A stretch of DNA of 35,968 bases from Vicinamibacterales bacterium (GTDB lineage: Bacteria > Acidobacteriota > Vicinamibacteria > Vicinamibacterales > UBA2999): NCBI GenBank assembly GCA_036565925.1, contig DATCXH010001115.1, forward strand, positions 1 to 35,968, given 5' to 3'. The notes under the pieces are model-generated. The model worked only from the letters and a program-made list of their open reading frames with translations, did no database searches and was not told where the DNA came from. Shown in pieces: positions 17,404 to 30,222 of the stretch. The position numbers and the translations under genes were made by a program. How positions within the stretch are numbered: position 1 is the stretch's first letter; the number at the start of each line of letters is the position of its first letter.

Positions 17404-18327
17404 ATGATTGATTGCATTGCGGGTTATCACCTGAATCCCTGGACCTGTGGAATCGCCAAATTCAACGCGATTCTCGCCAAATATCTCGGGGTTCCGGTGG
17501 TTGGACTCGGCGCTGTCGAGCTCGGCAGTCACAGGCGCCCGTTGCTCTCGATCAAGCTGTCGGAGTTCAGCTCGGCTGATGCCGCCGAGCTGGATCTCTG
17601 GGCGAGTTCGAGAGCCGGTGAGTTCGAATTGTTTCTGCACGCGTTCGACGGAACCGAGGTCGAGCAGCGTCTCGTCGCCGCGGCCGCGAAGGTCTATTGC
17701 GGCAACAGTGAGCTCTTCACCGAGCTCCAGACAATGCGCCCCGACATCCAGGAGCTGTTTTGTCCCGGCACGATTCTGAATCCGCAGCGGTTCCAGCGGA
17801 CGGAGCTGTCGGTGTTCACGTTCGGCATGGCGCACAAAATTCGCGTGCCGCTCTATCGCCGACTGCACGATCTGCTCGAAGCGACCGGGCAGAGCTACTC
17901 GGTGTACGTGTCAACGGCGCTCCATGAGAACACCAGCTTCGATGGCTCCTTCGTCGTGCGGTTCGAGGAGCTCCAATCGATCTTCAACGGACAGGTCTAC
18001 TTCATGGGGTACCTGTCCGATACGGCGGTCTTCAATCACCTGATGGACTGTACGTTCCTCGCCGCCTTCTTCGAGAAGGGCCTGCGCGCGAACAACACGA
18101 CCGTGAATGCGGCAATGGAAGTCGGCTGTGCGGTGATCACCAACCTTGACGAGCACTCGCCGGTTGGCCTGGCCCACATGCACAACGTGATCGACATCAA
18201 TCTCTGCGAGCGTCTGCCCGATACGGAGCAGACGCAGCGCATCGGCCGCGCCGCACGCGAGATCGCGCACGGCCAATACGGATGGGACCAGCTCGTCGCG
18301 CAGCTGCGGCCCGTCGTTCGAACCTGA
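17404..18327 (+). CDS. Divergent GT-B-like putative glycosyltransferase
   Basis: The C-terminal half resembles the GT1/GT4 donor domain (VYFMGYLSDTAVFNHLMDCTFLAAFFEKGLRANNTTVNAAMEVGCAVITN). It is preceded by a 71-nt, visibly lower-GC spacer. Preferred over the antisense ORF 16855..17868. Confidence 0.65.
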   Translation: MIDCIAGYHLNPWTCGIAKFNAILAKYLGVPVVGLGAVELGSHRRPLLSIKLSEFSSADAAELDLWASSRAGEFELFLHAFDGTEVEQRLVAAAAKVYCGNSELFTELQTMRPDIQELFCPGTILNPQRFQRTELSVFTFGMAHKIRVPLYRRLHDLLEATGQSYSVYVSTALHENTSFDGSFVVRFEELQSIFNGQVYFMGYLSDTAVFNHLMDCTFLAAFFEKGLRANNTTVNAAMEVGCAVITNLDEHSPVGLAHMHNVIDINLCERLPDTEQTQRIGRAAREIAHGQYGWDQLVAQLRPVVRT

Positions 18328-18364: not shown

Positions 18365-19441
18365 ATGGCACGCACACTGAAGATCGGCGCGCGCGAGATT
18401 GGCGATCACACCCCGTGTTACGTGATCGCCGAGATCGGACATAACCACCAGGGCAGCCTCGACAAAGCACGTGAGTTGTTTCGCGAGGCCAAGCTGGCCG
18501 GCGCGCACGCCGTAAAGCTGCAGAAGCGCGACAACCGCGGGCTCTACACCCGCGCCGCCTACGAGAAGCCGTACGACAACGAAAACAGCTTTGGGGCGAC
18601 CTACGGCGAGCACCGCGAGTTCCTCGAATTCGGCAAGGACGAATACGTCGCGTTGCAGGCCTATGCGAAAGAGCTGGGCATCGACTTCTTCTCGACGGCG
18701 TTCGATATCGCCAGTGCCGACTTTCTCGAGTCGCTGAATGTGCCGGCTTACAAGATCGCCTCAGGCGATCTCAAGAGCGTGCCGCTCCTGAAGCACGTGG
18801 CCGCGTTCGGGAAGCCAATGATAGTCTCGACCGGTGGCGCATTGCTCGAGGATGTGAAGCGCGCGTACGACGCCATCCTGCCGATCAATCCGAACCTGGC
18901 GATCCTGCAGTGCACGGCGGGATATCCGGCGGCCTTTGAAGAGCTCGACCTGCGAGTGATCAGCACCTACCGCGAGCATTTTCCGAAGGCGACCGTTGGT
19001 TTCTCGAGCCACGACAACGGTATCGCGATGCCGGTTGCCGCCTACATGCTCGGGGCGCGCATCATCGAGAAACACTTCACGTTGAATCGCGCGATGAAGG
19101 GCACCGACCATGCGTTCTCGCTCGAACCGGTCGGTCTCCGCAAGTTGGTCCGCGACCTCGATCGCACGTTCAAGGCGATGGGCGACGGCAAGAAGAAGCT
19201 CTACGAGAGCGAACGCGCGCCGATCATCAAAATGGGCAAGAGCCTCGTCGTCGCGCGCAATCTGCCCAGCGGTCACGTGATCGGTCCGAACGACGTGGTC
19301 ATGAAATCGCCCGGTGGTGGCATCCCGCCGTACGATCTCGACAAGGTCATCGGCCGAGTGACGCTCAAGCCGCTGCATGAGGATGACTTCCTCACCTTCG
19401 ACGTCCTGAGCAAGGCAGACGCCGAATTCGCCCGTTCGTGA
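18365..19441 (+). CDS. neuB: NeuB-family nonulosonic acid synthase with C-terminal SAF domain, resembling animal-type sialic acid / KDN 9-phosphate synthase (NANS)
   Basis: CYVIAEIGHNHQGSLDKARELFREAKLAGAHAVKLQKRD, PYDNENSFGATYGEHREFLEF, ILQCTAGYPAAFEELDLRVI, GFSSHDNGIAMPVAAYMLGARIIEKHFTL, GTDHAFSLEP, and a SAF-like tail (GKSLVVARNLPSGHVI). A GGAGA RBS lies upstream of the ATG. Confidence 0.92.
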   Translation: MARTLKIGAREIGDHTPCYVIAEIGHNHQGSLDKARELFREAKLAGAHAVKLQKRDNRGLYTRAAYEKPYDNENSFGATYGEHREFLEFGKDEYVALQAYAKELGIDFFSTAFDIASADFLESLNVPAYKIASGDLKSVPLLKHVAAFGKPMIVSTGGALLEDVKRAYDAILPINPNLAILQCTAGYPAAFEELDLRVISTYREHFPKATVGFSSHDNGIAMPVAAYMLGARIIEKHFTLNRAMKGTDHAFSLEPVGLRKLVRDLDRTFKAMGDGKKKLYESERAPIIKMGKSLVVARNLPSGHVIGPNDVVMKSPGGGIPPYDLDKVIGRVTLKPLHEDDFLTFDVLSKADAEFARS

Positions 19442-19448
19442 CGCTTCG

Positions 19449-20258
19449 GTGAACGGACGCTTTTCTCTCGACAAGCGTATCGCCGTCGTGACCGGGGCCA
19501 CCGGCAAGCTGGGCGCGGTGTGGACCGAAGCGCTCATCGAAGCCGGCGCCTGCGTTGCCGCACTCGACATCGCCAAGGCGGTGCCGACCGCCAGGTTCGA
19601 GGAGCTGACCAAGCGGGCCGGCAACGCAATCCAGCGCTTCGAGTGCGACATCACGAAGCGTGAATCGATCGAAACCGCCGCGAGCCTGGTCGCCGAGCGC
19701 CTCGGTGAGCCGTCGGTCCTCGTGAACAATGCAGGGATCGATCAGCCGCCGGACAGCCCCGGCGGCCGTCATCACCTGCACCAGCTGCCGATCGACGACT
19801 TCCGCCGCATGGTGGAAGTGAATCTGCTCGGCACGTTCCAGGTGACGCAAGTAGTCGGTGAGCGTATGGCGGCCAATGGCGGTGGTTCGATCATCAACAT
19901 CGGATCGCTCTACGCCTCGGTGTCGCCGGACGCCAACTTCTACGCCCACCTTGCCGGCAACGCGCCGTTCATCAAGTCACCGGCGTATGGGGCATCGAAG
20001 GCAGCGGTTGTGAATATGACCAAGTTCTTCGCGACACACTGGGCGGGTCGCGGCATTCGAGTCAACACGCTGTCGCCCGGAGGTGTGCTGGCCGGTCAGG
20101 ACGAGCAGTTCAAGTCCAAGTACGGCGCGCGCGTGCCGATGGCGCGCATGGCTGAACCTGAAGATCTCAAGGGCCCGTTGATCTTTCTCGCCTCGTCTGC
20201 CTCGTCTTACGTCACCGGCCACGAGCTCCGTGTGGATGGAGGCTTCACCGCATGGTGA
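19449..20258 (+). CDS. Short-chain dehydrogenase/reductase (classical SDR)
   Basis: VVTGATGKLG, NNAGI and YGASKAAV (YxxxK). Length is 269 aa. Confidence 0.9.
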   Translation: MNGRFSLDKRIAVVTGATGKLGAVWTEALIEAGACVAALDIAKAVPTARFEELTKRAGNAIQRFECDITKRESIETAASLVAERLGEPSVLVNNAGIDQPPDSPGGRHHLHQLPIDDFRRMVEVNLLGTFQVTQVVGERMAANGGGSIINIGSLYASVSPDANFYAHLAGNAPFIKSPAYGASKAAVVNMTKFFATHWAGRGIRVNTLSPGGVLAGQDEQFKSKYGARVPMARMAEPEDLKGPLIFLASSASSYVTGHELRVDGGFTAW

Positions 20259-20277
20259 AGCACGGAGGCTTGACGGC

Positions 20278-21474
20278 GTGGTGAAGCACCTGACCGTGGC
20301 GCTCGCGGCCATGGTCATCTTCGGTGCTCTTCACATTACGCTCGGGCGCATCCCCGTTGCCAACGGCGCGGGCTGGGACGGCATCGATTACGTCGCGATG
20401 CTGGAGAAGGGCTGGAAGGCCGGCGGACCAAATACGCAGTTGCGGCCGTTGGTGGTCTGGCTCACGCAACCTGCGTACGTCATGACCGGCTCTGCCGCCC
20501 AGGCGTTCGACATCACCAACTACGCCTTTACCGGTCTGCTGGCGTTTCTGTTTTCGCAGCTGATGGAGTGGTACGGCGCGTCCTCGGTGGCGCGATGGAT
20601 CGCGATCCTCTGCATCAGCGTGTCGAATGCCTATCAACTGCCCGCGTACTACCCAGTGCTGATCGATCTTGGCGGGCACGCGATGATGGCACTGGCGATG
20701 TGGCACATCATCGCCGGACCACGATGGGCAGCAGGCGGCGCTTCTATCGCTGCGGTCCTGTCACGCGAGTATGCGCCGGTCGTCCTGATCTTCGGTGCGT
20801 GGCGCGATCGTCATCTTCGCGTTCCCTTGACGACAACGCTGGCCACGTATGGTCCTGCGGCGCTGGTTTACGTGGCCGTGCGAGTGATTGTGGTTGCGCG
20901 AGCGACGGCGGAAGGAAACACGCTGCAGACATTCATCCGCAATACCGGTTTGTGGAGCGGGCCGTTGTTCCCGGCGTTCTATTTCTATTTCTTGCTGACC
21001 ATCGCCGGCGGCGTGTCGCTGGTGCTCGCCGCGCAGCCGCAGCGCTGCTGGCGCGTCATTCGGGAAGAGCCCGAGTGGCTCGGGTTTGCGGTGCCCATTA
21101 TTCTCGTCACTGCGCTGGTGGGGATCGATATCTGGCGGTATCTCACCGCGTTGACGCCGCTGATCGTCGTGCTGTTCGCGCGATGTTCGCAGGAGTGGCG
21201 GCCACGTCAGGCAATGGTGCTGATGTCGGCCGTCGTGGTGTTGACGCTCGTGACGCAAATGCCATTTCAGGGAATGGACCTGACGCGATACTTTACGGAG
21301 TGGTTTCCGTACTACGCCTGGACCAACGCAGTGCCTGCGGACGTGTCTGTCACGCGCGACATGCTCTGGCCAGGGTGGACGTGGAGGTTCGCGGCCGTGG
21401 CGCTGGCGCTTGGTGCGCTGATCGCGTATGCCAACGGTCGTGGACGCAGTGCACTGGTGACCCAGCGTGCATGA
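20278..21474 (+). CDS. Polytopic integral membrane protein of unknown function
   Basis: GTG at 20278 with GGAGG 9 nt upstream; the track start at 20230 overlaps the SDR gene. About 10 hydrophobic segments. The first loop carries GWDGIDYVAM. No soluble domain. Confidence 0.7.
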   Translation: MVKHLTVALAAMVIFGALHITLGRIPVANGAGWDGIDYVAMLEKGWKAGGPNTQLRPLVVWLTQPAYVMTGSAAQAFDITNYAFTGLLAFLFSQLMEWYGASSVARWIAILCISVSNAYQLPAYYPVLIDLGGHAMMALAMWHIIAGPRWAAGGASIAAVLSREYAPVVLIFGAWRDRHLRVPLTTTLATYGPAALVYVAVRVIVVARATAEGNTLQTFIRNTGLWSGPLFPAFYFYFLLTIAGGVSLVLAAQPQRCWRVIREEPEWLGFAVPIILVTALVGIDIWRYLTALTPLIVVLFARCSQEWRPRQAMVLMSAVVVLTLVTQMPFQGMDLTRYFTEWFPYYAWTNAVPADVSVTRDMLWPGWTWRFAAVALALGALIAYANGRGRSALVTQRA

Positions 21475-22967
21475 CACGAAGAAGAGAATCTGTGAGCATT
21501 GATCTCTCGATCCCGTCGATTGTTCCGAACCAGATGGGCGGCCACGACCGTGGCGCCGCCGACAACCGCACGTTTGCCAAGATGGATCCGGCGACCGGCC
21601 GCGAGTGCTGCCGCGTGGCGCGCTCGAGCGCGGCTGACGTGAACTCCGCCGTCGAGTGTGCGAGGAAGGCGCAGCCGGCGTGGGCGGCGACGACCGTCGT
21701 CAAGCGCGGCGAGATACTTCGGCGGATCGCCATCCTGATGCAGGAGCATCGCAACGCGATCGCCGATCTCGTGGCGCGCGAGACCGGCAAGTCCCGCAAG
21801 GACGCACTCGGCGAGACGGATGCGGCGATCGAGATGGGATTCTTCGTCGCTGGCGAGGGCCGTCGTTTCTACGGTCAGACGACAACGAGCGCCGTGCCGA
21901 ACAAGAGCGCGATGATCGTCCGGCAGCCGCTCGGCGTCGCCGGTCTCATCATCGCCGCGAACACGCCGATTGCCAACGTGGCGTGGAAAGCATTTCCGGC
22001 GCTGCTCTGTGGCAACTCCGCGATCCTGAAAGCTGCTGAAGACACTCCGCTCTCTGCCTGGGCGTTCGGCGTGCTCGCGCGCGAAGCCGGCATTCCTGAA
22101 GGTGTGTACACGACGCTGCACGGCTTCGGCGAAGAAGCTGGTGCGCCGCTCGTCGATCATCCCGACGTCGCGATCGTCAGCTTCACGGGATCGTGCGAGG
22201 TCGGCCGCTGGATCGCCGAAACCGCCGGCCGGCGCCTTGCGAAGACGTGCCTCGAGCTTGGCGGCAAGAACCCCTTGATCGTCTGCGATGATGCGGATTT
22301 GCAGAATGCGGTGACCTGGACACTCGGCTCGGCGTTCAGTAACGCGGGCCAGCGTTGCGCGGCCGGCAGCCGCATCATCGTTTTCGAGCAGGTGTACGAT
22401 CGTTTCAAGGCGATGCTCGTCGATGCGACTCGCAAGCTGAAAGTGGGAACCTCCGACAGTGACGACTACGGCCCGGTTATCAACGAAGACCAGATGAAGA
22501 ACATGCTCGCCGCAGTCACGCGCGCGAAGGCGGCGGGTGCGACTGTGATCACCGGCGGCGAGCGCTTGACCGGACCCTCATACGGCGACGGTTATTTCGT
22601 TGCGCCGACGTTGATCGAGAACGTGGGCCTCAACGACGAGATCACCCGCAGCGAGCTGTTCGGCCCGATCACGTGTCTCTATCGCGTGTCGAATTTCGAC
22701 GAGGCGATTGCGCTGGCGAACGATTCACCTTTCGGACTCACCGCATCGATTCATACGCAGAACATCAATCGCGCGATGACGTTCCTGAACCGGATTCAAT
22801 CCGGCGTAGCCGTCGTGAACGGTGGCACCTACGGCAGCGAGCCGCACCTGCCATTCGGCGGACTGCGTCAGTCGGGCAATGGCTGGCGTGAAGCCGGCAC
22901 GCAGGCAATCGACGTCTACTCAGATCTGAAGACGATCTACATCAATCACAACCCGAGTGCGGTGTGA
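21471..22967 (+). CDS. NAD(P)-dependent aldehyde dehydrogenase
   Basis: The ATG at 21471 overlaps the upstream TGA (ATGA). FTGSCEVGRWI, ELGGKNP (catalytic Glu), GQRCAAGSR (catalytic Cys) and ELFGPI. The track ORF start at 20568 is an upstream same-frame extension across the membrane gene. Confidence 0.92.
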   Translation: MTRRRESVSIDLSIPSIVPNQMGGHDRGAADNRTFAKMDPATGRECCRVARSSAADVNSAVECARKAQPAWAATTVVKRGEILRRIAILMQEHRNAIADLVARETGKSRKDALGETDAAIEMGFFVAGEGRRFYGQTTTSAVPNKSAMIVRQPLGVAGLIIAANTPIANVAWKAFPALLCGNSAILKAAEDTPLSAWAFGVLAREAGIPEGVYTTLHGFGEEAGAPLVDHPDVAIVSFTGSCEVGRWIAETAGRRLAKTCLELGGKNPLIVCDDADLQNAVTWTLGSAFSNAGQRCAAGSRIIVFEQVYDRFKAMLVDATRKLKVGTSDSDDYGPVINEDQMKNMLAAVTRAKAAGATVITGGERLTGPSYGDGYFVAPTLIENVGLNDEITRSELFGPITCLYRVSNFDEAIALANDSPFGLTASIHTQNINRAMTFLNRIQSGVAVVNGGTYGSEPHLPFGGLRQSGNGWREAGTQAIDVYSDLKTIYINHNPSAV

Positions 22968-22982
22968 ACATGGCAGTCCCAG

Positions 22983-23209
22983 GTTCCATGTTCCAAGTTC
23001 CCGGTTCGTGTTCGAGGTTCCCCGGTTCGTGTTCGAGGTTCCGGTGTTCCAGCTTCGGCGTTCGCTGTTCGAAGAGGACATGGCTGGCTCGAGGGCGAAA
23101 TCTGACCCGGAACCCTGAACGGCGCACCCGAACCCGGAACCCTGAACCGCGAACCCTGAACTCCGAACTTCGAACGCGAACCCGGAACCTGGAACATGGA
23201 ACGCGGAAC
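22983..23209. repeat. Inverted array of ~7-nt-period GTTC (left arm) and GAAC (right arm) repeats forming a long imperfect palindrome
   Basis: By my count there are 12 GTTC units at 22983..23070 and 14 GAAC units at 23110..23209. A perfect 21-bp tandem duplication (CCGGTTCGTGTTCGAGGTTCC) occupies 23001..23021 and 23022..23042. The outer arms (22982..23001 vs 23185..23203) are complementary with about one mismatch. The array fills the whole ALDH-to-cytidylyltransferase spacer and overlaps the ATG at 23196. Confidence 0.85.
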
Positions 23210-23966
23210 TAGTCCATCCGCAGTCGCCTTTATCCCCGCTCGCGTGGGATCGAAGCGGGTCCCCGGGAAGAACATCCGGCTGCTCGGCGGTCATCCGATG
23301 ATTGCCTACACGATCGGTCCGGCACTCGAGAGCAAGGTCTTCGACGCCGTCATCGTCTCGACTGATTCAGAAGAGATTGCCGCGATTGCGCGCCACTACG
23401 GCGCCGAAGTGCCATTCCTTCGTCCACCTGCGCTCGCCAGCGACACCTCGCCCGACATCGAGTGGCTCGAGTACACCATTGGTGAGCTGAGCGCACACGG
23501 ACGCAACTGGGACTGCTTCAGTTTGCTGCGTCCGACCAGTCCGTTTCGCACCGCGGATACCATTCGACGCGCGTGGGCGACGTTCGCGGCTCAGGAAGGC
23601 GTCGATTCGTTGCGAGCGGTCGAGTTGTGTACGCAGCATCCGGGAAAGATGTGGGTGGTGCGCGGGCAGCGGATGTCTCCGTTGTTGCCATTCGGTAACG
23701 GGGATCAACCGTGGCACAGCACGCCGTACCAAGCGCTGCCTCGAGTATTTGTGCAAAACGCGTCCCTCGAGATCGCGTGGACGCGTGTCGTGCGCGAGCG
23801 GAGGACGATTGCCGGTGATGTCCTCGTGCCGTTTCTCACCGAAGGCTACGAAGGTTTTGATATCAATGACGCCTTTGACTGGATGGTGGCCGAGCGGCTC
23901 CTCGTCGAAGGGAAAGTAACCTTGCCAACCGTGAACACCGAGCCTTATGGGACTATGAAGGTTTAG
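23196..23966 (+). CDS. Acylneuraminate cytidylyltransferase family protein (CMP-nonulosonic/ulosonic acid synthetase, NeuA/KdsB-like)
   Basis: The N-terminal AFIPARVGSKRVPGKN matches the 'IPARxGSKxxxxKN' signature. Also LRPTSPFR. Length is 256 aa. Confidence 0.88.
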   Translation: MERGTSPSAVAFIPARVGSKRVPGKNIRLLGGHPMIAYTIGPALESKVFDAVIVSTDSEEIAAIARHYGAEVPFLRPPALASDTSPDIEWLEYTIGELSAHGRNWDCFSLLRPTSPFRTADTIRRAWATFAAQEGVDSLRAVELCTQHPGKMWVVRGQRMSPLLPFGNGDQPWHSTPYQALPRVFVQNASLEIAWTRVVRERRTIAGDVLVPFLTEGYEGFDINDAFDWMVAERLLVEGKVTLPTVNTEPYGTMKV

Positions 23967-24073
23967 TGGTAAGTCTTTCATAGTTCGCTGTGGCCGCTCC
24001 GTTGTCGCGGCCAGGTAATCGCGGTCGAAGGCTGGTTGTGACTCGTATGGTTTCGGTATATACGGACCACTAG

Positions 24074-26020
24074 ATGGGTGATATTCAGACAGACCAGGGT
24101 GAATCGCTCGAGCTGCATTTCGTACCCGCAGACGAGTTCAACCGGCTGCTCGACGCCAACGTCTCGGACGTGGCCCGAGCGCGCGCCTTCGCCGCGCTCG
24201 CGCGCATCAACACGCTCTACATGATCGCCGGCGCGTGGTCCGGCCACATCGGGACGAGCTTCAGCTCGCTCGAGATCATGAGCTGGGTGTTCCTGAACGA
24301 GATGCGCGATCTCAAGAAGGGCCCGCAACAAACCGACATCTTCTTCTCGTCGAAGGGCCATGACGCCCCCGCGCTCTACAACGTGCTGATTGGTCTCGGT
24401 CTGCTCGACGAAGACAAACTCCACCAGCTGCGACGTCTGCATGGACTGCCCGGGCATCCGCACATCGAAACGCCGTACATCCAGGCCAACACCGGCTCAC
24501 TGGGTATGGGTATCTCGAAGGCGAAGGGCATGGTGCTGGCCAATCGGCTTGCCGGCGTTGAGCGCCGCGTGTTTGTGCTCACCGGCGATGGCGAGCTGCA
24601 GGAAGGCCAGTTCTGGGAGTCGCTGTCATCGGCCGCCAATCGCGGCCTGGGCGAGATCGTCGCGATCGTCGACCACAACAAGATTCAGTCTGATACCTGG
24701 GTCGAAAACGTCAGCAGCCTTGGTGACATCGAGGCAAAGTTCCGCGCGTTCGGATGGCACGTCGCCCGCTGCGATGGTCACGACGTCGCCGCGCTCGAGA
24801 AAACGTTCCGCGCTCTGGACGATGTGGAGAATGTGCCCAAAGTGATCATTGCCGATACCGTGAAGGGAAAGGGCGTCTCCTTCATGGAAGGTCCGGCGAT
24901 GACTGAGGGCCAGCTGTACGGATATCACTCGGGTGCACCCGGCGAGAAGCAGTACACGGACGGGCTCGCCGAGCTGTTGGAGTCGGCAAACAGTCTCTTT
25001 GCGGAACTCGGCCTCGGAAAGCTGCGCACCGACACACGTCTCCGCAATCCGCGCCGGGAGCCACGCAAGACCGACAACCTGATCGCCGCGTACGAGCAGG
25101 CGCTGCTCTGGCAAGGCGAGCGTCATCGCAACCTGGTCGTCCTCGATGCGGATCTCATCAAGGACTGCGGCCTCGTGCAGTTCTCGAAGCGCTATCCCGA
25201 TCGTTTCGTCGAGTGCGGCATCGCCGAGCAGGACATGGTGTCGATGGCGAGCGGCATGGCGCGTCGCGGCGTGCTGCCGATCGTGCATTCGTTCGCATGC
25301 TTCCTGTCAGCGCGTCCCAACGAGCAGATCTACAACCAGTGCACCGAGGGGACGAAGGTCATCTACGTTGGTTCACTGGCGGGGTTGATCCCTGGCGGCC
25401 CCGGCCACTCACATCAGTCGGTGCGCGACATCTCGGCGCTGCGCGGCGTGCCGAATCTGTCGCTGCTCGAGCCGTGCATGGAAGCGGAGGTCGGTGCGCT
25501 GGTGGACTACGCGGTCAATGCCGCCGTGGACAGCGTCTATCTCCGACTCGTGTCGGTGAAGTGGCCGATCCCGTTTGGTTATCCGTCGCATCACAAAGTC
25601 GAGATCGGCAAAGGCTGGGTCGTCCGCGATGGTGACGATGCGATCTGCTTCGGGTATGGACCGTGGCTGATGGCAAGCGCGTATGAGGCCGTCGAGGAGA
25701 TCGAGAAGAGCACCGGCGCGACGATTCGGCTGGTGAACCTCCCATGGCTCAATCGCATTGATTTGCGGTGGCTGCGCGAGGTGGTCGGCGGACGACGATC
25801 GATCGTGACGCTCGACAATCACTATCTGAAAGGCGGGCAGGGCGAGATGGTTGCCACGGCGATCGCCGAGCTTGGCCTCGAGCCGGCCGCCCGCGTCTGG
25901 CGCGTCGGCGTCATGGCGCTGCCGCAGTGCGGCACCAACGACGAGGTGCTCGCACATCACAAGCTCGATGTCGCCAGTCTTGTCTCGAGCTTCAAACGGG
26001 CGGTGCCGCAGATCGCATGA
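24074..26020 (+). CDS. Transketolase-family ThDP enzyme (N- and C-terminal halves fused in one 648-aa protein)
   Basis: GHIGTSFSSLEIM, GSLGMGISKAKG and GDGELQEGQFWE...VDHNKIQ (ThDP/Mg motif). The pyrimidine-binding half carries ECGIAEQDMVSMASGMA and GPGHSHQS. Confidence 0.9.
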   Translation: MGDIQTDQGESLELHFVPADEFNRLLDANVSDVARARAFAALARINTLYMIAGAWSGHIGTSFSSLEIMSWVFLNEMRDLKKGPQQTDIFFSSKGHDAPALYNVLIGLGLLDEDKLHQLRRLHGLPGHPHIETPYIQANTGSLGMGISKAKGMVLANRLAGVERRVFVLTGDGELQEGQFWESLSSAANRGLGEIVAIVDHNKIQSDTWVENVSSLGDIEAKFRAFGWHVARCDGHDVAALEKTFRALDDVENVPKVIIADTVKGKGVSFMEGPAMTEGQLYGYHSGAPGEKQYTDGLAELLESANSLFAELGLGKLRTDTRLRNPRREPRKTDNLIAAYEQALLWQGERHRNLVVLDADLIKDCGLVQFSKRYPDRFVECGIAEQDMVSMASGMARRGVLPIVHSFACFLSARPNEQIYNQCTEGTKVIYVGSLAGLIPGGPGHSHQSVRDISALRGVPNLSLLEPCMEAEVGALVDYAVNAAVDSVYLRLVSVKWPIPFGYPSHHKVEIGKGWVVRDGDDAICFGYGPWLMASAYEAVEEIEKSTGATIRLVNLPWLNRIDLRWLREVVGGRRSIVTLDNHYLKGGQGEMVATAIAELGLEPAARVWRVGVMALPQCGTNDEVLAHHKLDVASLVSSFKRAVPQIA

Positions 26021-26700
26021 TCGTGCTGTTCTGGGATATTGACGGCACGCTGCTGACCACGGGCAAGGCAGGCGTTCCGGCGTGGGAGCAGGCTGTCCGC
26101 GAGATCGTGCAGCGTGATTTCGAACTGGCGTCCTTTCGCGTTGCCGGGATGACCGACTATCAGATCGCGGTGCGCACGTTCGAGATGCTCGACGTCCCGG
26201 TGGACGAGGCCACGATTCACAAGATGGTGGGTCGCTACGAGGCGCTGCTGCCGCAGGAGTTGCCGAAGAAGCAGGGCCGGGTGCTGCCCAACGTGCGTGA
26301 AATTCTCGAACTCATGAGCGGCCGATCCGATGTGCGCTCGTATCTGCTCACCGGCAACACACGCGGCGGTGCGCGGGCCAAGCTCACGCACTACAACCTG
26401 TTTCACTACTTCATCGACGGCGCGTTTGCCGAGGACGCCGGCGCGCGCTCGACGATTGCCACGCGGGCGCTGCAGCTTGCCCGAGACGCTGGTCCAGTTG
26501 CCGACAACGGGATCTTCGTCGTCGGCGACACGCCGCACGATATCGATTGCGCAAATGCGATCGGCGCGAGGACCGTCGCCGTGGCGACGGGCGGCTATTC
26601 GCTCGACGAGCTTCAATCGCATCGGCCGTGGCGTGCGTTCGACGAGCTGCCCGCGGCGGAAGAATTCGCCCGTCTCATCGACGAGGCGCGGCAGGGATGA
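26017..26700 (+). CDS. HAD-superfamily hydrolase (subfamily IA, phosphatase-like)
   Basis: The ATG at 26017 overlaps the transketolase TGA (ATGA). MIVLFWDIDGTLL is motif I (DxDGT), LLTGN is motif II and VGDTPHDIDCA is motif IV. The track start at 25768 is an upstream same-frame extension. Confidence 0.88.
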   Translation: MIVLFWDIDGTLLTTGKAGVPAWEQAVREIVQRDFELASFRVAGMTDYQIAVRTFEMLDVPVDEATIHKMVGRYEALLPQELPKKQGRVLPNVREILELMSGRSDVRSYLLTGNTRGGARAKLTHYNLFHYFIDGAFAEDAGARSTIATRALQLARDAGPVADNGIFVVGDTPHDIDCANAIGARTVAVATGGYSLDELQSHRPWRAFDELPAAEEFARLIDEARQG

Positions 26701-28412
26701 AGCACGGGATTCGCCGCGTGCCGCAGCTGTGGCGTGCGACGCGGCTGGCGCGCCGCTGGTATCACGCGCGCGCGGGTGCGTATCCCGACTGGCAGCAGCT
26801 GATCGCCGCGGACTCAGCGCGCTGGCAATCGGCACGTGCGGCCGCGGCCAATGGTCCGCGCGTACTGTTCGCGACGGCGATCGGGTCGTACGCGCACGCG
26901 GTTACGCTCGAGAGCGCGCTTGCCGCGGCGCTGACGTTCCGCGGCGCCAACGTGCACGTCCTGCTCTGCGACGGAGCGATGACAGCCTGCGCCGAATGCG
27001 AGGCATCGCTCTATCCCAACGTCGCGCGGTTTGCTGAGCACGGACCGGCACGAGACCTGTGCCGCGATTGTCAGTGGCCGGCCGAGCGCGTCTATCAGCA
27101 GCTCGGACTCACGATTCATCGCTACGGCGACTGGCTGACTACCGAAGACCGCGCCCAGGCCCGTCATCTGGCGACGTCGATCGCGTTCGAACAGATCGAA
27201 GGGTTGACAGTTGACGGGCTGGCCATCGGTGAGCATGCGTATGCCGGTGCGTTGCGCTTCTTCGCGACCGGATCACTGGACGATCAGCCGCACGGCGAAG
27301 CGGTCCTGCGTCGGTATCTCGAGTCGGCGCTGCTGACGGCGTTCGCCACACGGCAACTGATCCGATCGGTCGGATTTACGTCGGCGGTCTTCACGCATGG
27401 CATCTACGTACCGTGGGGCCTCATCGGTGAGGTGGCACGTCAGGAGCGCGTGAAAGTGTCGACGTGGAACGTCGCCTATCGCAAGCGGCGCTTCATCTTC
27501 AGCCACGACGACACGTATCACCACACGCTGATGAGCGAGCCGTTGTCGCACTGGGAGAACCACGAGCTCTCGCCTGCGCAGGAACAGGATCTGATGCAGT
27601 ACCTCGCCAGTCGCCGCGAGGGCATGTTCGACTGGATCGTCTTCCATCGCCCGACCACCCAGAAGGCCGACGATATCGCCGCGAAGGTCGGGCTCGATCG
27701 CACACGGCCGGTGATCGGCCTGCTGACGAATGTCTCGTGGGACGCGCAGTTGCACTATCCGGCGAACGCCTTCGTCGACATGCTGGACTGGCTGGTGCAG
27801 ACGTGCCGCTACTTCGCGACGCGTCCCGATCTGCAGTTGCTGGTGCGCGTGCACCCAGCCGAGATCAGCGGGTTCCCGCCGTCCCGCCAACCGATCCTCG
27901 GTGAACTGCGGAAGCACATCCCGACGCTCGCGCCAAACATCCATATCGTGCCGCCCGAGAGCGGATTGAGCACCTACGCGCTGATGTCTCTGTGCAACAG
28001 CGCGATCATTTACGGCACGAAGATGGGCGTCGAATTGACCGCGGTCGGGCTGCCGGTGATCGTCGCGGGTGAGGCATGGATCCGCAACAAAGGGTTGACC
28101 CACGATGCGACCACGCCGGAGGAATACTTCAAGATCCTCGAACGTCTGCCATTTCCCGAGCGCCTTGGTCCCGCCCAGCTCTCCAGGGCCCGCCGTTACG
28201 CCTACCATTTCTTCTTCAACCGGATGATTCCGCTTCCCTTTATCCAACCCAAGGCGGGATATCCGATCTATAGCCTCAAGCTCGAGGCTTTGAAGCACCT
28301 CCTTCCCGGCGAATCCGAAGGACTGGATACAATCTGCGACGGCATCCTCGGCAAGGGGCCATTCGTCCTGTGCGACAAGGCCGCCCACACGCCGCAGCTT
28401 GTGAATTCGTGA
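26697..28412 (+). CDS. Large GT-B-like protein, possibly capsule-polysaccharide-biosynthesis (KpsC/KpsS-type) family; candidate ulosonic-acid transferase
   Basis: The ATG at 26697 overlaps the HAD TGA (ATGA). The protein is 571 aa with a Rossmann-like N-terminus (PRVLFATAIGSYAH), a Cys cluster (CDGAMTACAEC...CRDC) and a C-terminal GT-B-like block (LLVRVHPAE..., NSAIIYGTKMGVELTAVGLPVIVAG). Family assignment is by architecture and context only. Confidence 0.55.
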   Translation: MKHGIRRVPQLWRATRLARRWYHARAGAYPDWQQLIAADSARWQSARAAAANGPRVLFATAIGSYAHAVTLESALAAALTFRGANVHVLLCDGAMTACAECEASLYPNVARFAEHGPARDLCRDCQWPAERVYQQLGLTIHRYGDWLTTEDRAQARHLATSIAFEQIEGLTVDGLAIGEHAYAGALRFFATGSLDDQPHGEAVLRRYLESALLTAFATRQLIRSVGFTSAVFTHGIYVPWGLIGEVARQERVKVSTWNVAYRKRRFIFSHDDTYHHTLMSEPLSHWENHELSPAQEQDLMQYLASRREGMFDWIVFHRPTTQKADDIAAKVGLDRTRPVIGLLTNVSWDAQLHYPANAFVDMLDWLVQTCRYFATRPDLQLLVRVHPAEISGFPPSRQPILGELRKHIPTLAPNIHIVPPESGLSTYALMSLCNSAIIYGTKMGVELTAVGLPVIVAGEAWIRNKGLTHDATTPEEYFKILERLPFPERLGPAQLSRARRYAYHFFFNRMIPLPFIQPKAGYPIYSLKLEALKHLLPGESEGLDTICDGILGKGPFVLCDKAAHTPQLVNS

Positions 28413-28428: not shown

Positions 28429-30222
28429 GTGATTACAGCTCTCAGTTTCGTGATTGCCACCGCCACGGCGGTGGCGATGGGCGCGGTTGTACGCCGCATT
28501 GCGCCTGTGGTCGGCGCGGTGGTGCCGCCACGCCCGGATCGGTGGAGCAGTGCGCCGACGCCGACCATGGGCGGGATCGCGATCGCGATCGGCACGCTCG
28601 GCGGCTTCATTCTGGTCGGATTGGCCAGTCCGGACGCCGCGTCCGCGAGCTCGGCGTGGGCCTGGGTGCTCCTCGCCGCGCTTGGCATGTTCGTCGTCGG
28701 CTTCTATGACGATCGGCTGCAGCTGTCGCCGATCGCCAAGCTCGTCGCATCGCTTGTCATCGGTGCGTTCCTCGTGTTCGCGTTGTCCGGCGCTGACCCT
28801 GATAGCGCGCTGCCGCCCGAGTACACGCTGGTCGGCACCATCTGGTTCGCCGGGCTCTGCCACGCGATGAACCTGCTCGACAACATGGACGGCCTGGCGA
28901 CTGGCGTCGCCATCATCGCCACCACGTTTCTCGCCACGCTGCTCAGCCCACTTCTTGGCCCGATGCTGGTGGCGCTGCTGGTGTCGCTGGCCGGCGCGCT
29001 GGTTGGATTCCTTTTCTGGAATCGTCCGCGGGCCCGGCTGTTCATGGGCGATTGCGGCAGCCTTTTCATCGGCGCGATGCTCGCGGGTTCGTCACTCGTG
29101 CCGATCTTCAACGCCCGCGTGGCGTTCGTCAGCCCGGCGGTGCTGGTTGTGTTGATCCTCGTCGTGCCGCTTTTCGACACGGCGTTCGTTCTCGTGCTGC
29201 GGCGGCTTGCCGGCCGCAAGGCGAGCAAGGGCGGCACCGATCACGTGTCGCACCGGCTCGTGTCGCTTGGCTTCTCGGAGCGCAGCGCGGTTCGGATCCT
29301 GTATCTCTTCGCGCTCATTGGCGGGCTGGCGGCGTGGGGAATTCAGAAGTGGAGTGCGGTCGAGCCGATGATGCCATTCGTGGCGTTGTTCGGTGTGATC
29401 GTGATCCTGATCGGCATCTATCTCGCGCGCGTGCCGGCCTATAACGCGCAGGACTTCATCGCGCTGCAGAAGTCCTCGTTCGCGCCGTTCCTCAAAGATC
29501 TGGCATTCCGCTGGCACGCGGGGCAGGTGATGCTCGACCTGGTGCTCATCACCGTGTGCTACTACGTCGCCTACCGGCTGCGTTTCGAGGGCGAGAGCCT
29601 CGATCCGTTTCTGCAGTACTTTCTCTCCACGCTGCCGATCGTGCTCGGGTGCAAGCTGCTGGCACTGCTGGCGTCTGGACTGTACCAACGCTCGTGGGAT
29701 ACGTTCGGCCTTCGCGATCTGACGACGGTGGTGCGAGGTGTGGGCATCGGATCGCTACTCACCGTGGCGGCGTCCTACTACCTCTATCGCGGCGAGGGCT
29801 CGTCACGCGTCGTCTTCGTGCTTGACGCGCTGCTGCTCGGGGCCGCGATCATCGCAACGCGCGTCTCGTTCCAGGCCATGAACCTGTTGGCCTCTGAGCG
29901 AAACAAGAAAAGCCGGCGCGTGCTGGTCTACGGCGCCGGTGGCTACGGCCGGCTGTTAGTGCGTGAGATGCGCGCCAACTCGGCGTGGCGCATGAACCCG
30001 GTAGGATTCATAGACGACGACCCGATGAAGGCGCATCGCTGGATTGTTGGCGTGCCGGTGCACGGTGCGATCGATCAGCTCGAGCAAGTGATGCGCGTGT
30101 ACAACGTCGATGAAGTCCTCCTCAGCAGCCCGGCGATCAATGGCAATGTTGAAGTCAGGATTCGTGAGATCTGCATGGTGCTGCAGAGACCTGTGCGCCG
30201 GTTGCGCATGGAGATCTCGTAG
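28429..30222 (+). CDS. Polyprenyl-phosphate HexNAc-1-phosphate transferase (MraY/WecA superfamily, GT4-type PNPT) fused to a C-terminal 4-TM plus Rossmann-like module typical of WbaP/CapD N-termini
   Basis: PNPT motifs are FYDDRLQLSPIAKL, NLLDNMDGLATG, FMGDCGSLFIG, VPLFDTAFVLVLRR and TDHVSHRL. The C-terminal part has 4 further TM segments followed by RRVLVYGAGGYGRLLVREM...NPVGFIDDDP...GVPVHG...VDEVLLSSP. Confidence 0.88.
   Translation: MITALSFVIATATAVAMGAVVRRIAPVVGAVVPPRPDRWSSAPTPTMGGIAIAIGTLGGFILVGLASPDAASASSAWAWVLLAALGMFVVGFYDDRLQLSPIAKLVASLVIGAFLVFALSGADPDSALPPEYTLVGTIWFAGLCHAMNLLDNMDGLATGVAIIATTFLATLLSPLLGPMLVALLVSLAGALVGFLFWNRPRARLFMGDCGSLFIGAMLAGSSLVPIFNARVAFVSPAVLVVLILVVPLFDTAFVLVLRRLAGRKASKGGTDHVSHRLVSLGFSERSAVRILYLFALIGGLAAWGIQKWSAVEPMMPFVALFGVIVILIGIYLARVPAYNAQDFIALQKSSFAPFLKDLAFRWHAGQVMLDLVLITVCYYVAYRLRFEGESLDPFLQYFLSTLPIVLGCKLLALLASGLYQRSWDTFGLRDLTTVVRGVGIGSLLTVAASYYLYRGEGSSRVVFVLDALLLGAAIIATRVSFQAMNLLASERNKKSRRVLVYGAGGYGRLLVREMRANSAWRMNPVGFIDDDPMKAHRWIVGVPVHGAIDQLEQVMRVYNVDEVLLSSPAINGNVEVRIREICMVLQRPVRRLRMEIS

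Follow-up and report, generated by a model that had tools for sequence, protein, structure and literature searches.

The DNA studied here is a contig (C363) of 35,968 nucleotides, hereafter called the window, from a metagenome-assembled genome of a Vicinamibacterales bacterium of the Acidobacteriota (6.6 Mb, 84.5% complete). Close homologs carry Vicinamibacterales or Acidobacteria labels. A run of plus-strand genes at 17.4-30.2 kb includes one for a nonulosonic acid (NulO) synthase that resembles NANS, the sialic acid synthase of animals, more than it resembles classical bacterial NeuB. We give an even chance to the reading that the region encodes a NulO pathway of the phosphate route, of the animal NANS or Kdn-9-phosphate (Kdn-9-P) kind, set within a conserved tailoring cassette. 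Read in this way, the region is a variant of the known 9-phosphate route to NulOs. An earlier note on this DNA had pointed out the likeness to NANS and proposed a phosphorylated substrate. Its observation is confirmed, and its interpretation is partly supported.

The synthase carries the expected domains, with Pfam scores of 260.5 bits for NeuB (cut-off 22.1; E 1.9e-77) and 43.7 bits for SAF (cut-off 21). The peptide strings quoted in the earlier note are present in its open reading frame (ORF). In Neisseria meningitidis (Nm) numbering, the catalytic and metal-binding residues K53, Q55, K129, Y186, H215, H236 and D247 are all kept, both in the synthase and throughout a 28-sequence alignment. 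The protein is 41% identical to human NANS (290 bits), with one gap across 341 residues. The human sequence was checked against a database animal NANS, P0197, from the pseudoscorpion Cordylochernes scorpioides (UYV73508.1). P0197 ranks within the top 150 of the 18,728 hits to representative sequences and is 40% identical to the synthase (272 bits). By comparison, the solved bacterial enzymes SpsE, N. meningitidis NeuB and PseI score only 161, 145 and 134 bits. The synthase also falls below the NCBIfam equivalog cut-offs for NeuB/LegI (TIGR03569, NeuB_NnaB; 294.4 versus 399.65) and PseI (TIGR03586; 233.6 versus 340.25).

Features of the eukaryotic enzymes are found as well. A stretch spanning α2-β2, K.QK...R.A...PY....S(F/W)G.TYGEH...LEF, is co-linear between the synthase and both animal sequences, and in the synthase it is two to three residues longer than in classical NeuB. 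The α2-β2 loop of the human enzyme has been described as favoring reaction with the phosphorylated substrate (PMC8208679). The same study gives two markers of eukaryotic NanS, namely Asp in place of Nm-E134 and the lack of Arg at Nm-R314, a SAF-domain residue that is essential in classical NeuB (PMC8208679). The synthase has both, with Asp at the first position and Ser at the second. The corresponding pairs are Glu/Arg in N. meningitidis NeuB and SpsE, and Glu/Lys in a paralog encoded on contig C782 of the same genome. The position of human NANS Met42 was also considered as a discriminator between Kdn and N-acetylneuraminic acid (Neu5Ac), and was dropped because it is variable across the cassette clade described below.

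A maximum-likelihood tree was built from 84 sequences, a sample that leaves out the Kdn-9-P synthases of Bacteroides thetaiotaomicron and Prymnesium. In this tree, the synthase lies in a clade of 39 bacterial sequences with Shimodaira-Hasegawa approximate likelihood-ratio (SH-aLRT) support of 100. That clade adjoins the animal NANS clade, and both are inside a 62-row group with support of 99. N. meningitidis NeuB and the C782 paralog fall outside this group. Forcing the synthase together with these two costs 63.5 log-likelihood units (approximately unbiased [AU] test, p 0.025). The synthase is therefore a neighbor of animal NANS in a separate bacterial clade (support 100), and is not placed within the animal clade. 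A phylogeny of this kind had been called for in the earlier note; robust clustering with classical NeuB or PseI, the outcome that would speak against a NANS-like enzyme, is not seen in it. The claim that the enzyme is closer to animal NANS than to classical NeuB is thus upheld by bit scores (272-290 versus 134-161), tree support (99), the AU test (p 0.025) and the marker residues.

The gene run, in which neighbors are tightly spaced or share 4 nt, consists of the following features.

17404..18327, plus strand: 307-aa protein without a Pfam hit and with a predicted compact GT-B (GT4-like) fold; accessory gene upstream of the synthase.
18365..19441, plus strand: NANS-like nonulosonic acid synthase, NeuB and SAF domains, 358 aa.
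19449..20258, plus strand: classical short-chain dehydrogenase/reductase (SDR), NAD type (adh_short_C2, 2.2e-47).
20230..21474, plus strand: polytopic membrane protein of ~410 aa, start uncertain (hydrophobic sequence, no family hit).
21471..22967, plus strand: aldehyde dehydrogenase (ALDH; Aldedh, 7e-152).
22968..23215, plus strand: spacer (228 nt) between the ALDH and cytidylyltransferase genes, predicted to fold as an RNA hairpin that reaches over the cytidylyltransferase start.
23196..23966, plus strand: NeuA-type cytidine monophosphate (CMP)-ulosonic acid synthetase (CTP_transf_3, PF02348).
24074..26020, plus strand: fused transketolase (TK)-fold, thiamine diphosphate (ThDP)-dependent enzyme (Pfam Transketolase_N/pyr/C).
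26017..26700, plus strand: predicted HAD-IA phosphatase (HAD_2/HAD/Hydrolase).
26697..28412, plus strand: 571-aa GT-B protein, KpsC-like, candidate CMP-ulosonic acid transferase (weak Capsule_synth match, and fold).
28429..30222, plus strand: WecA/MraY-type polyprenyl-phosphate sugar-phosphate transferase with a CoA_binding_3 module (profile matches; same position in the related contigs L001 and L003).

As the earlier note had stated, a HAD protein (HAD_2/HAD, type IA) and a cytidylyltransferase (PF02348) share an operon with the synthase, the genes being packed or overlapping by 4 nt. The HAD gene is translationally coupled to the TK-like gene and to the gene of the 571-aa transferase. A scan of the region for terminators and promoters gave no signal above shuffled background. 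The gene order of the window recurs in two related metagenomic contigs, L001 and L003. L001 (ERZ25039547 contig_6477) comes from a close relative, and gene calling there breaks the cytidylyltransferase, TK and HAD genes into short pieces, probably owing to frameshift errors of long-read assembly.

The HAD of the window is a C1-capped type IA enzyme whose best PDB match and only good solved relative is 2HCF, an uncharacterized Chlorobium protein. However, clustering of the ORFs of 27 related loci for shared neighbors revealed a second HAD type. A protein of ~175 aa with FDFDGVFTDN...GNDIND motifs adjoins the orthologous synthase in a deltaproteobacterium, a Chromatiales species, Vampirovibrio, a Gaiellales species and a Dehalococcoidales species (L007, L019, L025, L030 and L038). 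In an Elusimicrobia locus (L033), the same protein is encoded ~5.5 kb upstream on the opposite strand. These small HADs belong to the KdsC/YrbI and Kdn-9-P phosphatase family, scoring 91 bits against Escherichia coli KdsC and 56 bits against B. thetaiotaomicron BT1713. The recruitment of two unrelated HAD types to the same cassette is good comparative evidence for a phosphorylated synthase product from which the phosphate has to be taken off. A phosphorylated substrate for the synthase is therefore plausible from the genes, as is the 9-phosphate route that had been proposed, although the HAD of the window itself lacks specific similarity to NulO-9-phosphate phosphatases. The further suggestion that this phosphatase is as in the Bacteroides system does not hold, as the HAD is C1-capped IA and not of the C0 KdsC type.

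Two characterized routes can be compared with this arrangement. The animal NANS-NANP-CMAS route shares with it a synthase of 40-41% identity, the α2-β2 motif, Asp at Nm-E134 and the missing Arg at Nm-R314, as well as a NeuA/CMAS-type cytidylyltransferase and a C1-capped HAD-IA. NANP is itself a HAD of the C1-capped IA class. However, the synthase of the window lies outside the animal clade, and its HAD has no detectable specific similarity to NANP. In addition, the window has no GNE-type epimerase/kinase, and the SDR, the TK-like enzyme and the ALDH have no animal counterpart. In B. thetaiotaomicron and Prymnesium parvum, Kdn is made from phosphoenolpyruvate (PEP) and mannose 6-phosphate (Man-6-P) by a Kdn-9-P synthase, a dedicated phosphatase and a CMP-Kdn synthetase (PMC6200933). 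The region follows the same logic, and in the cassettes of other phyla the phosphatase is, as in that system, a member of the KdsC/Kdn-9-P family. It differs in its HAD-IA phosphatase and in three extra conserved enzymes.

The proteins of the window were searched by tblastn against 80 loci from named genomes. Genes for NeuB, SDR, ALDH, cytidylyltransferase and TK follow one another in a conserved order in more than 10 phyla, in all cases where the synthase is a member of the clade with support of 100. The taxa include Thermodesulfobacteriota, Gemmatimonadota, Alpha- and Gammaproteobacteria, Chloroflexota and Acidobacteriota, as well as Bdellovibrionota, Melainabacteria, Elusimicrobiota, Actinomycetota and Chlorobiota. 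Chlorobium sp. KB01 (L058/L088) is a carrier that has been cultured. More distant NANS-like synthases lack the ALDH and TK genes. The TK gene seemed to be missing at 12 loci, yet 10 of these 12 genomes have an ortholog of 44-57% identity just past the locus or on another contig, often adjoining a cytidylyltransferase gene. Most apparent variants of the cassette without TK are thus artifacts that arise where a locus or contig stops. The TK-like gene has a patchy distribution within Acidobacteriota (13 of 301 sampled species), as expected of a surface-glycan trait. The earlier note had envisaged a functional unit of synthase, phosphatase and CMP-synthetase. Those genes are present, but the unit is larger, because the SDR, ALDH and TK-like genes are conserved with them across phyla. 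For the same reason, the end product is unlikely to be plain Kdn or Neu5Ac. A literature search found no description of such a cassette or of ulosaric acid biosynthesis in bacteria.

Two loci of the cassette clade have a different content. At L006:11913-17811 and L012:11882-14090, the NeuB and SDR genes are followed by genes for DegT-type aminotransferases, a SASA-like esterase and sugar dehydratases, and no ALDH gene is found there. In the genome of L006, cytidylyltransferase, TK and HAD genes reside on another contig (L086). These loci may represent amino-sugar variants of the pathway.

The TK-like protein aligns end to end with human transketolase (TKT; 4KXU). The human TKT sequence was checked against a HMMER alignment to 4KXU. 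The ligands of ThDP and Mg and the histidines that hold the donor ketol (H37, H77, H110, H258, D155, N185 and E366, human numbering) are invariant in 18 of 18 sequences, which comprise the protein of the window and 17 orthologs. In all 18, the residues that bind the sugar phosphate are replaced: R318 by Ile or Val (or a gap), S345 by Asp, H416 by Leu or Tyr, and R474 by Ser or Ile. D424 is Pro in the window protein and the 17 orthologs. In contrast, three canonical TKs encoded in the same genome (C499:4206-5709, C795:9747-11915 and C343:4274-6391) keep all these residues wherever the sequence reaches. The C499 enzyme, which shares 52% identity with human TKT, is truncated after E366 where the contig ends. 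Thus, the TK-like enzyme shares fold, domain order, ThDP and Mg ligands and donor-ketol histidines with canonical transketolases such as human TKT and bacterial TktA, but differs at R318, S345, H416, R474 and D424. It also scores below the NCBIfam transketolase cut-offs (400 bits for NF004559, cut-off 488). Because the ketol site is kept and the phosphate ligands are lost, the enzyme is expected to retain ketol chemistry, although not on ordinary sugar phosphates.

Two other roles for this enzyme were rejected. A part in supplying erythrose 4-phosphate or another sugar phosphate was set aside, since its phosphate ligands are all lost and the canonical TKs of the genome keep them. Decarboxylation of the 2-keto acid was likewise set aside, because the NeuA-type enzyme needs that acid intact and the histidines that bind the ketol are still there.

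The relatives of the SDR and ALDH give further indications of the chemistry. An Asp stands at the end of β2 in 24 of 24 cassette SDRs, and thus a preference for NAD(H), and hence an oxidative role, is expected. The nearest named relatives of the SDR are D-mannonate oxidoreductase, gluconate 5-dehydrogenase and sorbitol dehydrogenase, which oxidize the next-to-last carbon of a polyol or sugar acid to yield a terminal ketol. For the ALDH, the best NCBIfam models are 2,5-dioxovalerate and α-ketoglutarate-semialdehyde dehydrogenases, which act on 2-keto-acid semialdehydes (418-420 bits, against cut-offs of 750-770). The cytidylyltransferase has as its closest solved relative the CMP-Neu5Ac synthetase of N. 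meningitidis (83 bits, compared with 37 bits for KdsB), and it scores 132 bits against the PseF model, under the cut-off of 206.

We propose a scheme that builds on what the sequences show: the families of the genes, the position of the synthase in the tree, its marker residues, the conservation of the cassette and the missing phosphate site of the TK. From these we infer the substrate, the order of reactions and the product. The NANS-like synthase would condense PEP with a 6-phospho-hexose to give a Kdn-9-P-type nonulosonate 9-phosphate. Because no precursor enzymes travel with the cassette, Man-6-P is the most likely substrate. The 9-phosphate would then be taken off by the HAD-IA phosphatase, or by the KdsC-type HAD in other phyla. 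The NAD-dependent SDR might next oxidize the C8 hydroxyl of the exocyclic glycerol tail to yield a terminal ketol, whereupon the TK-like ThDP enzyme could cut between C7 and C8 and release a glycolaldehyde unit. The new C7 aldehyde would be turned into a carboxylate by the ALDH, giving a 3-deoxy-hept-2-ulosaric acid. The NeuA-type enzyme would form the CMP-sugar, and this activation could come before the three tailoring reactions. Finally, the KpsC-like GT-B protein is predicted to add the sugar to a glycan begun by the WecA-type transferase.

This scheme is the most economical one that uses every conserved enzyme, and the order of tailoring within it is deduced. The glycerol tail should be accessible because it is exocyclic in the pyranose form. 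By our own derivation, 8-keto-Kdn viewed from C9 has the D-threo configuration at C3/C4 that is required of transketolase donors. The SDR, the TK without its phosphate site and the ALDH could thereby form a "periodate-like" module that takes two carbons off a Kdn-type tail and oxidizes the stump, leading to a CMP-activated 3-deoxy-hept-2-ulosaric acid. We put this module forward tentatively, as a possibility that falls somewhat short of even. What results is probably not ordinary sialic acid or Kdn but a new surface sugar with two acid groups. If it is made from Kdn, it is predicted to be 3-deoxy-L-arabino-hept-2-ulosaric acid, a diastereomer of the plant sugar Dha. Identity with plant Dha was ruled out on stereochemical grounds, since by our derivation NeuB-type condensation and the mannose-derived centers lead to the L-arabino and not the D-lyxo form.

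A partial precedent exists for such late tailoring. The Kdo8N pathway of Shewanella uses the dehydrogenase KdnB and the aminotransferase KdnA. There, too, the tail of a finished ulosonic acid is oxidized to a carbonyl and then processed further, but the dehydrogenase is of another family, there is no C-C cleavage, and no ALDH takes part.

Several points weigh against the phosphate route with its tailoring cassette. The HAD of the window matches neither KdsC nor BT1713 and shows no specific similarity to any known NulO-9-phosphate phosphatase, including NANP, and its homologs are seen in few lineages only (L003, L015 and L086). The AU result has no more than moderate significance and concerns long branches. 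The clade of cassette synthases stands apart from that of animals and could use another phospho-aldose, and the B. thetaiotaomicron and Prymnesium Kdn-9-P synthases are outside the tree sample. The SDR, ALDH and TK all score below equivalog cut-offs, and what is suggested of their substrates comes from nearest families and is correspondingly weak. The scheme is read from genes and names no acceptor for the two-carbon unit.

Other explanations place the same enzymes differently. The SDR could oxidize the terminal C9 hydroxyl to an aldehyde and the ALDH could convert this to a non-2-ulosaric acid, with no shortening of the chain and a separate role for the TK-like enzyme. An SDR and an ALDH are the minimal pair for turning CH2OH into COOH, and the dehydrogenase of the Kdo8N pathway makes a terminal aldehyde. 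Moreover, the variant loci L006 and L012 pair NeuB and SDR with aminotransferases instead of the ALDH. However, this explanation leaves the TK-like enzyme without a role despite its near-universal co-occurrence with the synthase clade and its retained ketol-binding histidines, and the nearest relatives of the SDR act on secondary, next-to-last alcohols and not on primary ones. We regard a C9 diacid as unlikely. The three enzymes might instead act upstream, building an unusual aldose phosphate (a tetrose, pentose or octose) that the synthase condenses with PEP. A transketolase feeds a PEP-condensing enzyme in the aminoshikimate (AHBA) pathway, and the cassette contains no other precursor enzymes. 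Yet all four phosphate-binding residues of the TK are replaced in every cassette member, one of them by Asp, and three canonical TKs are already at the disposal of the organism. If the ALDH worked on an aldose phosphate, the synthase would lose its aldehyde substrate, and an NAD-type SDR points to oxidation. A precursor route thus seems a little less likely still.

The remaining two explanations dispense with part of the gene set. A synthase, a phosphatase and a CMP-synthetase are all that B. thetaiotaomicron and Prymnesium need to make CMP-Kdn (PMC6200933), and the cytidylyltransferase of the window is NeuA-like. The region could accordingly make plain Kdn or Neu5Ac, with the SDR, ALDH and TK genes being passengers of a polysaccharide locus. 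Against this, the three genes stand in constant order beside the synthase and cytidylyltransferase genes in more than 10 phyla at 40-68% identity. Furthermore, the TK-like protein is a specialized paralog, found only with this synthase clade and patchy in its distribution (13 of 301 genomes of the phylum sample). We consider this explanation improbable. It would be more improbable yet that the synthase, in the manner of classical NeuB, takes a sugar without a phosphate and that the HAD has an unrelated role. HAD genes are common, and the HAD-IA of the window lacks similarity to known NulO phosphatases. Nevertheless, KdsC-family phosphatases adjoin the orthologous synthase in several phyla, the NANS-type markers are present, and the Arg at Nm-R314 that is essential in classical NeuB is absent (PMC8208679).

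The last steps of the proposed route would fall to the downstream proteins. The 571-aa protein has a confident AlphaFold2 (AF2) model (mean predicted local distance difference test [pLDDT] score 85.8), and its best fold matches are the KpsC β-Kdo transferases (E 1e-7), followed by generic GT-B enzymes. The likeness to KpsC is modest, with template-modeling (TM) scores of ~0.33 (query) and 0.52-0.54 (target) and 12-14% identity. The Pfam Capsule_synth model (PF05159) gives 13.7 bits, under the cut-off of 20 (E 0.043). D349, H386, P387, E389, C91, C98, C122 and C125 are invariant, and an HP motif is typical of CMP-sugar-dependent GT-B transferases. The protein resembles the KpsC/KpsS β-Kdo transferases (GT107; 6MGB, 6MGC and 8FUW), its best structural match, in its predicted GT-B fold and its invariant HP motif. 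It differs from them in its low TM score and identity, its Capsule_synth score under the cut-off, and an additional N-terminal portion that bears the four-Cys cluster. Its gene also accompanies those of NANS-like synthases outside the cassette clade. On the strength of the predicted fold, we regard it as a candidate CMP-sugar transferase. The four Cys (C91, C98, C122 and C125; window positions 26967-27071) are invariant in 17 homologs from several phyla, and this conservation suggests a structural metal site in a KpsC-like transferase.

The WecA/MraY-type protein is the probable initiating transferase of the glycan. Its C-terminal module of four transmembrane segments and a CoA_binding_3 domain is one that normally belongs to WbaP/PglF-like proteins. 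At the other end of the run, the 307-aa protein (17404-18327) has no Pfam or NCBIfam match. Homologs of 40-90% identity lie near the synthase gene in six loci from Acidobacteria, Rhodospirillaceae and Solirubrobacterales (L003, L015, L018, L022, L026 and L028). Its AF2 model (pLDDT 81.8) matches best the folds of BshA and other GT4 enzymes (TM ~0.42). The membrane protein encoded between the SDR and ALDH genes has a homolog only in the close relative L003 (49% identity) and is not found in cassettes of other phyla.

The spacer at 22968-23215 has GTTC-rich and GAAC-rich arms that are predicted to pair in a hairpin of ~240 nt (-131.7 kcal/mol, z -9.3), burying the cytidylyltransferase start codon. 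This hairpin may be an element that controls translation or processing.

Profile searches found neither NeuC nor an N-acetylmannosamine (ManNAc) kinase within the window, in agreement with the earlier note; a NeuC-like gene is found on contig C782 instead. That contig carries a second, classical set on its minus strand (C782:35-5750), composed of genes for a NeuA-like cytidylyltransferase, a GT-C-like membrane protein whose sequence ends in GWPCYR, a methyltransferase, an epimerase resembling NeuC and a NeuB of the classical kind (173 bits against N. meningitidis NeuB). Because C782 has NeuC-like, NeuA and classical NeuB genes, the genome holds a classical NulO set in addition to the NANS-like one.

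The usual classification of bacterial NulOs distinguishes Neu, Leg, Pse and Kdn types, and the synthases encoded in a genome serve to predict the chemistry of its surface sugars. The present analysis indicates that a large group of environmental bacteria from many phyla combines a synthase of the animal (9-phosphate) type with three enzymes that are absent from described NulO pathways. If tailoring works as proposed, these organisms would bear a new class of acidic sugar on their surfaces, and transketolase-fold enzymes would have a new job and a new type of reaction. The biosynthesis of plant Dha, an ulosaric acid, is still listed as unknown (PMC12168206). The route proposed here, if true, would be the first by which the biosynthesis of any ulosaric acid is explained, and would provide a model for how ulosaric acids such as plant Dha can be made.

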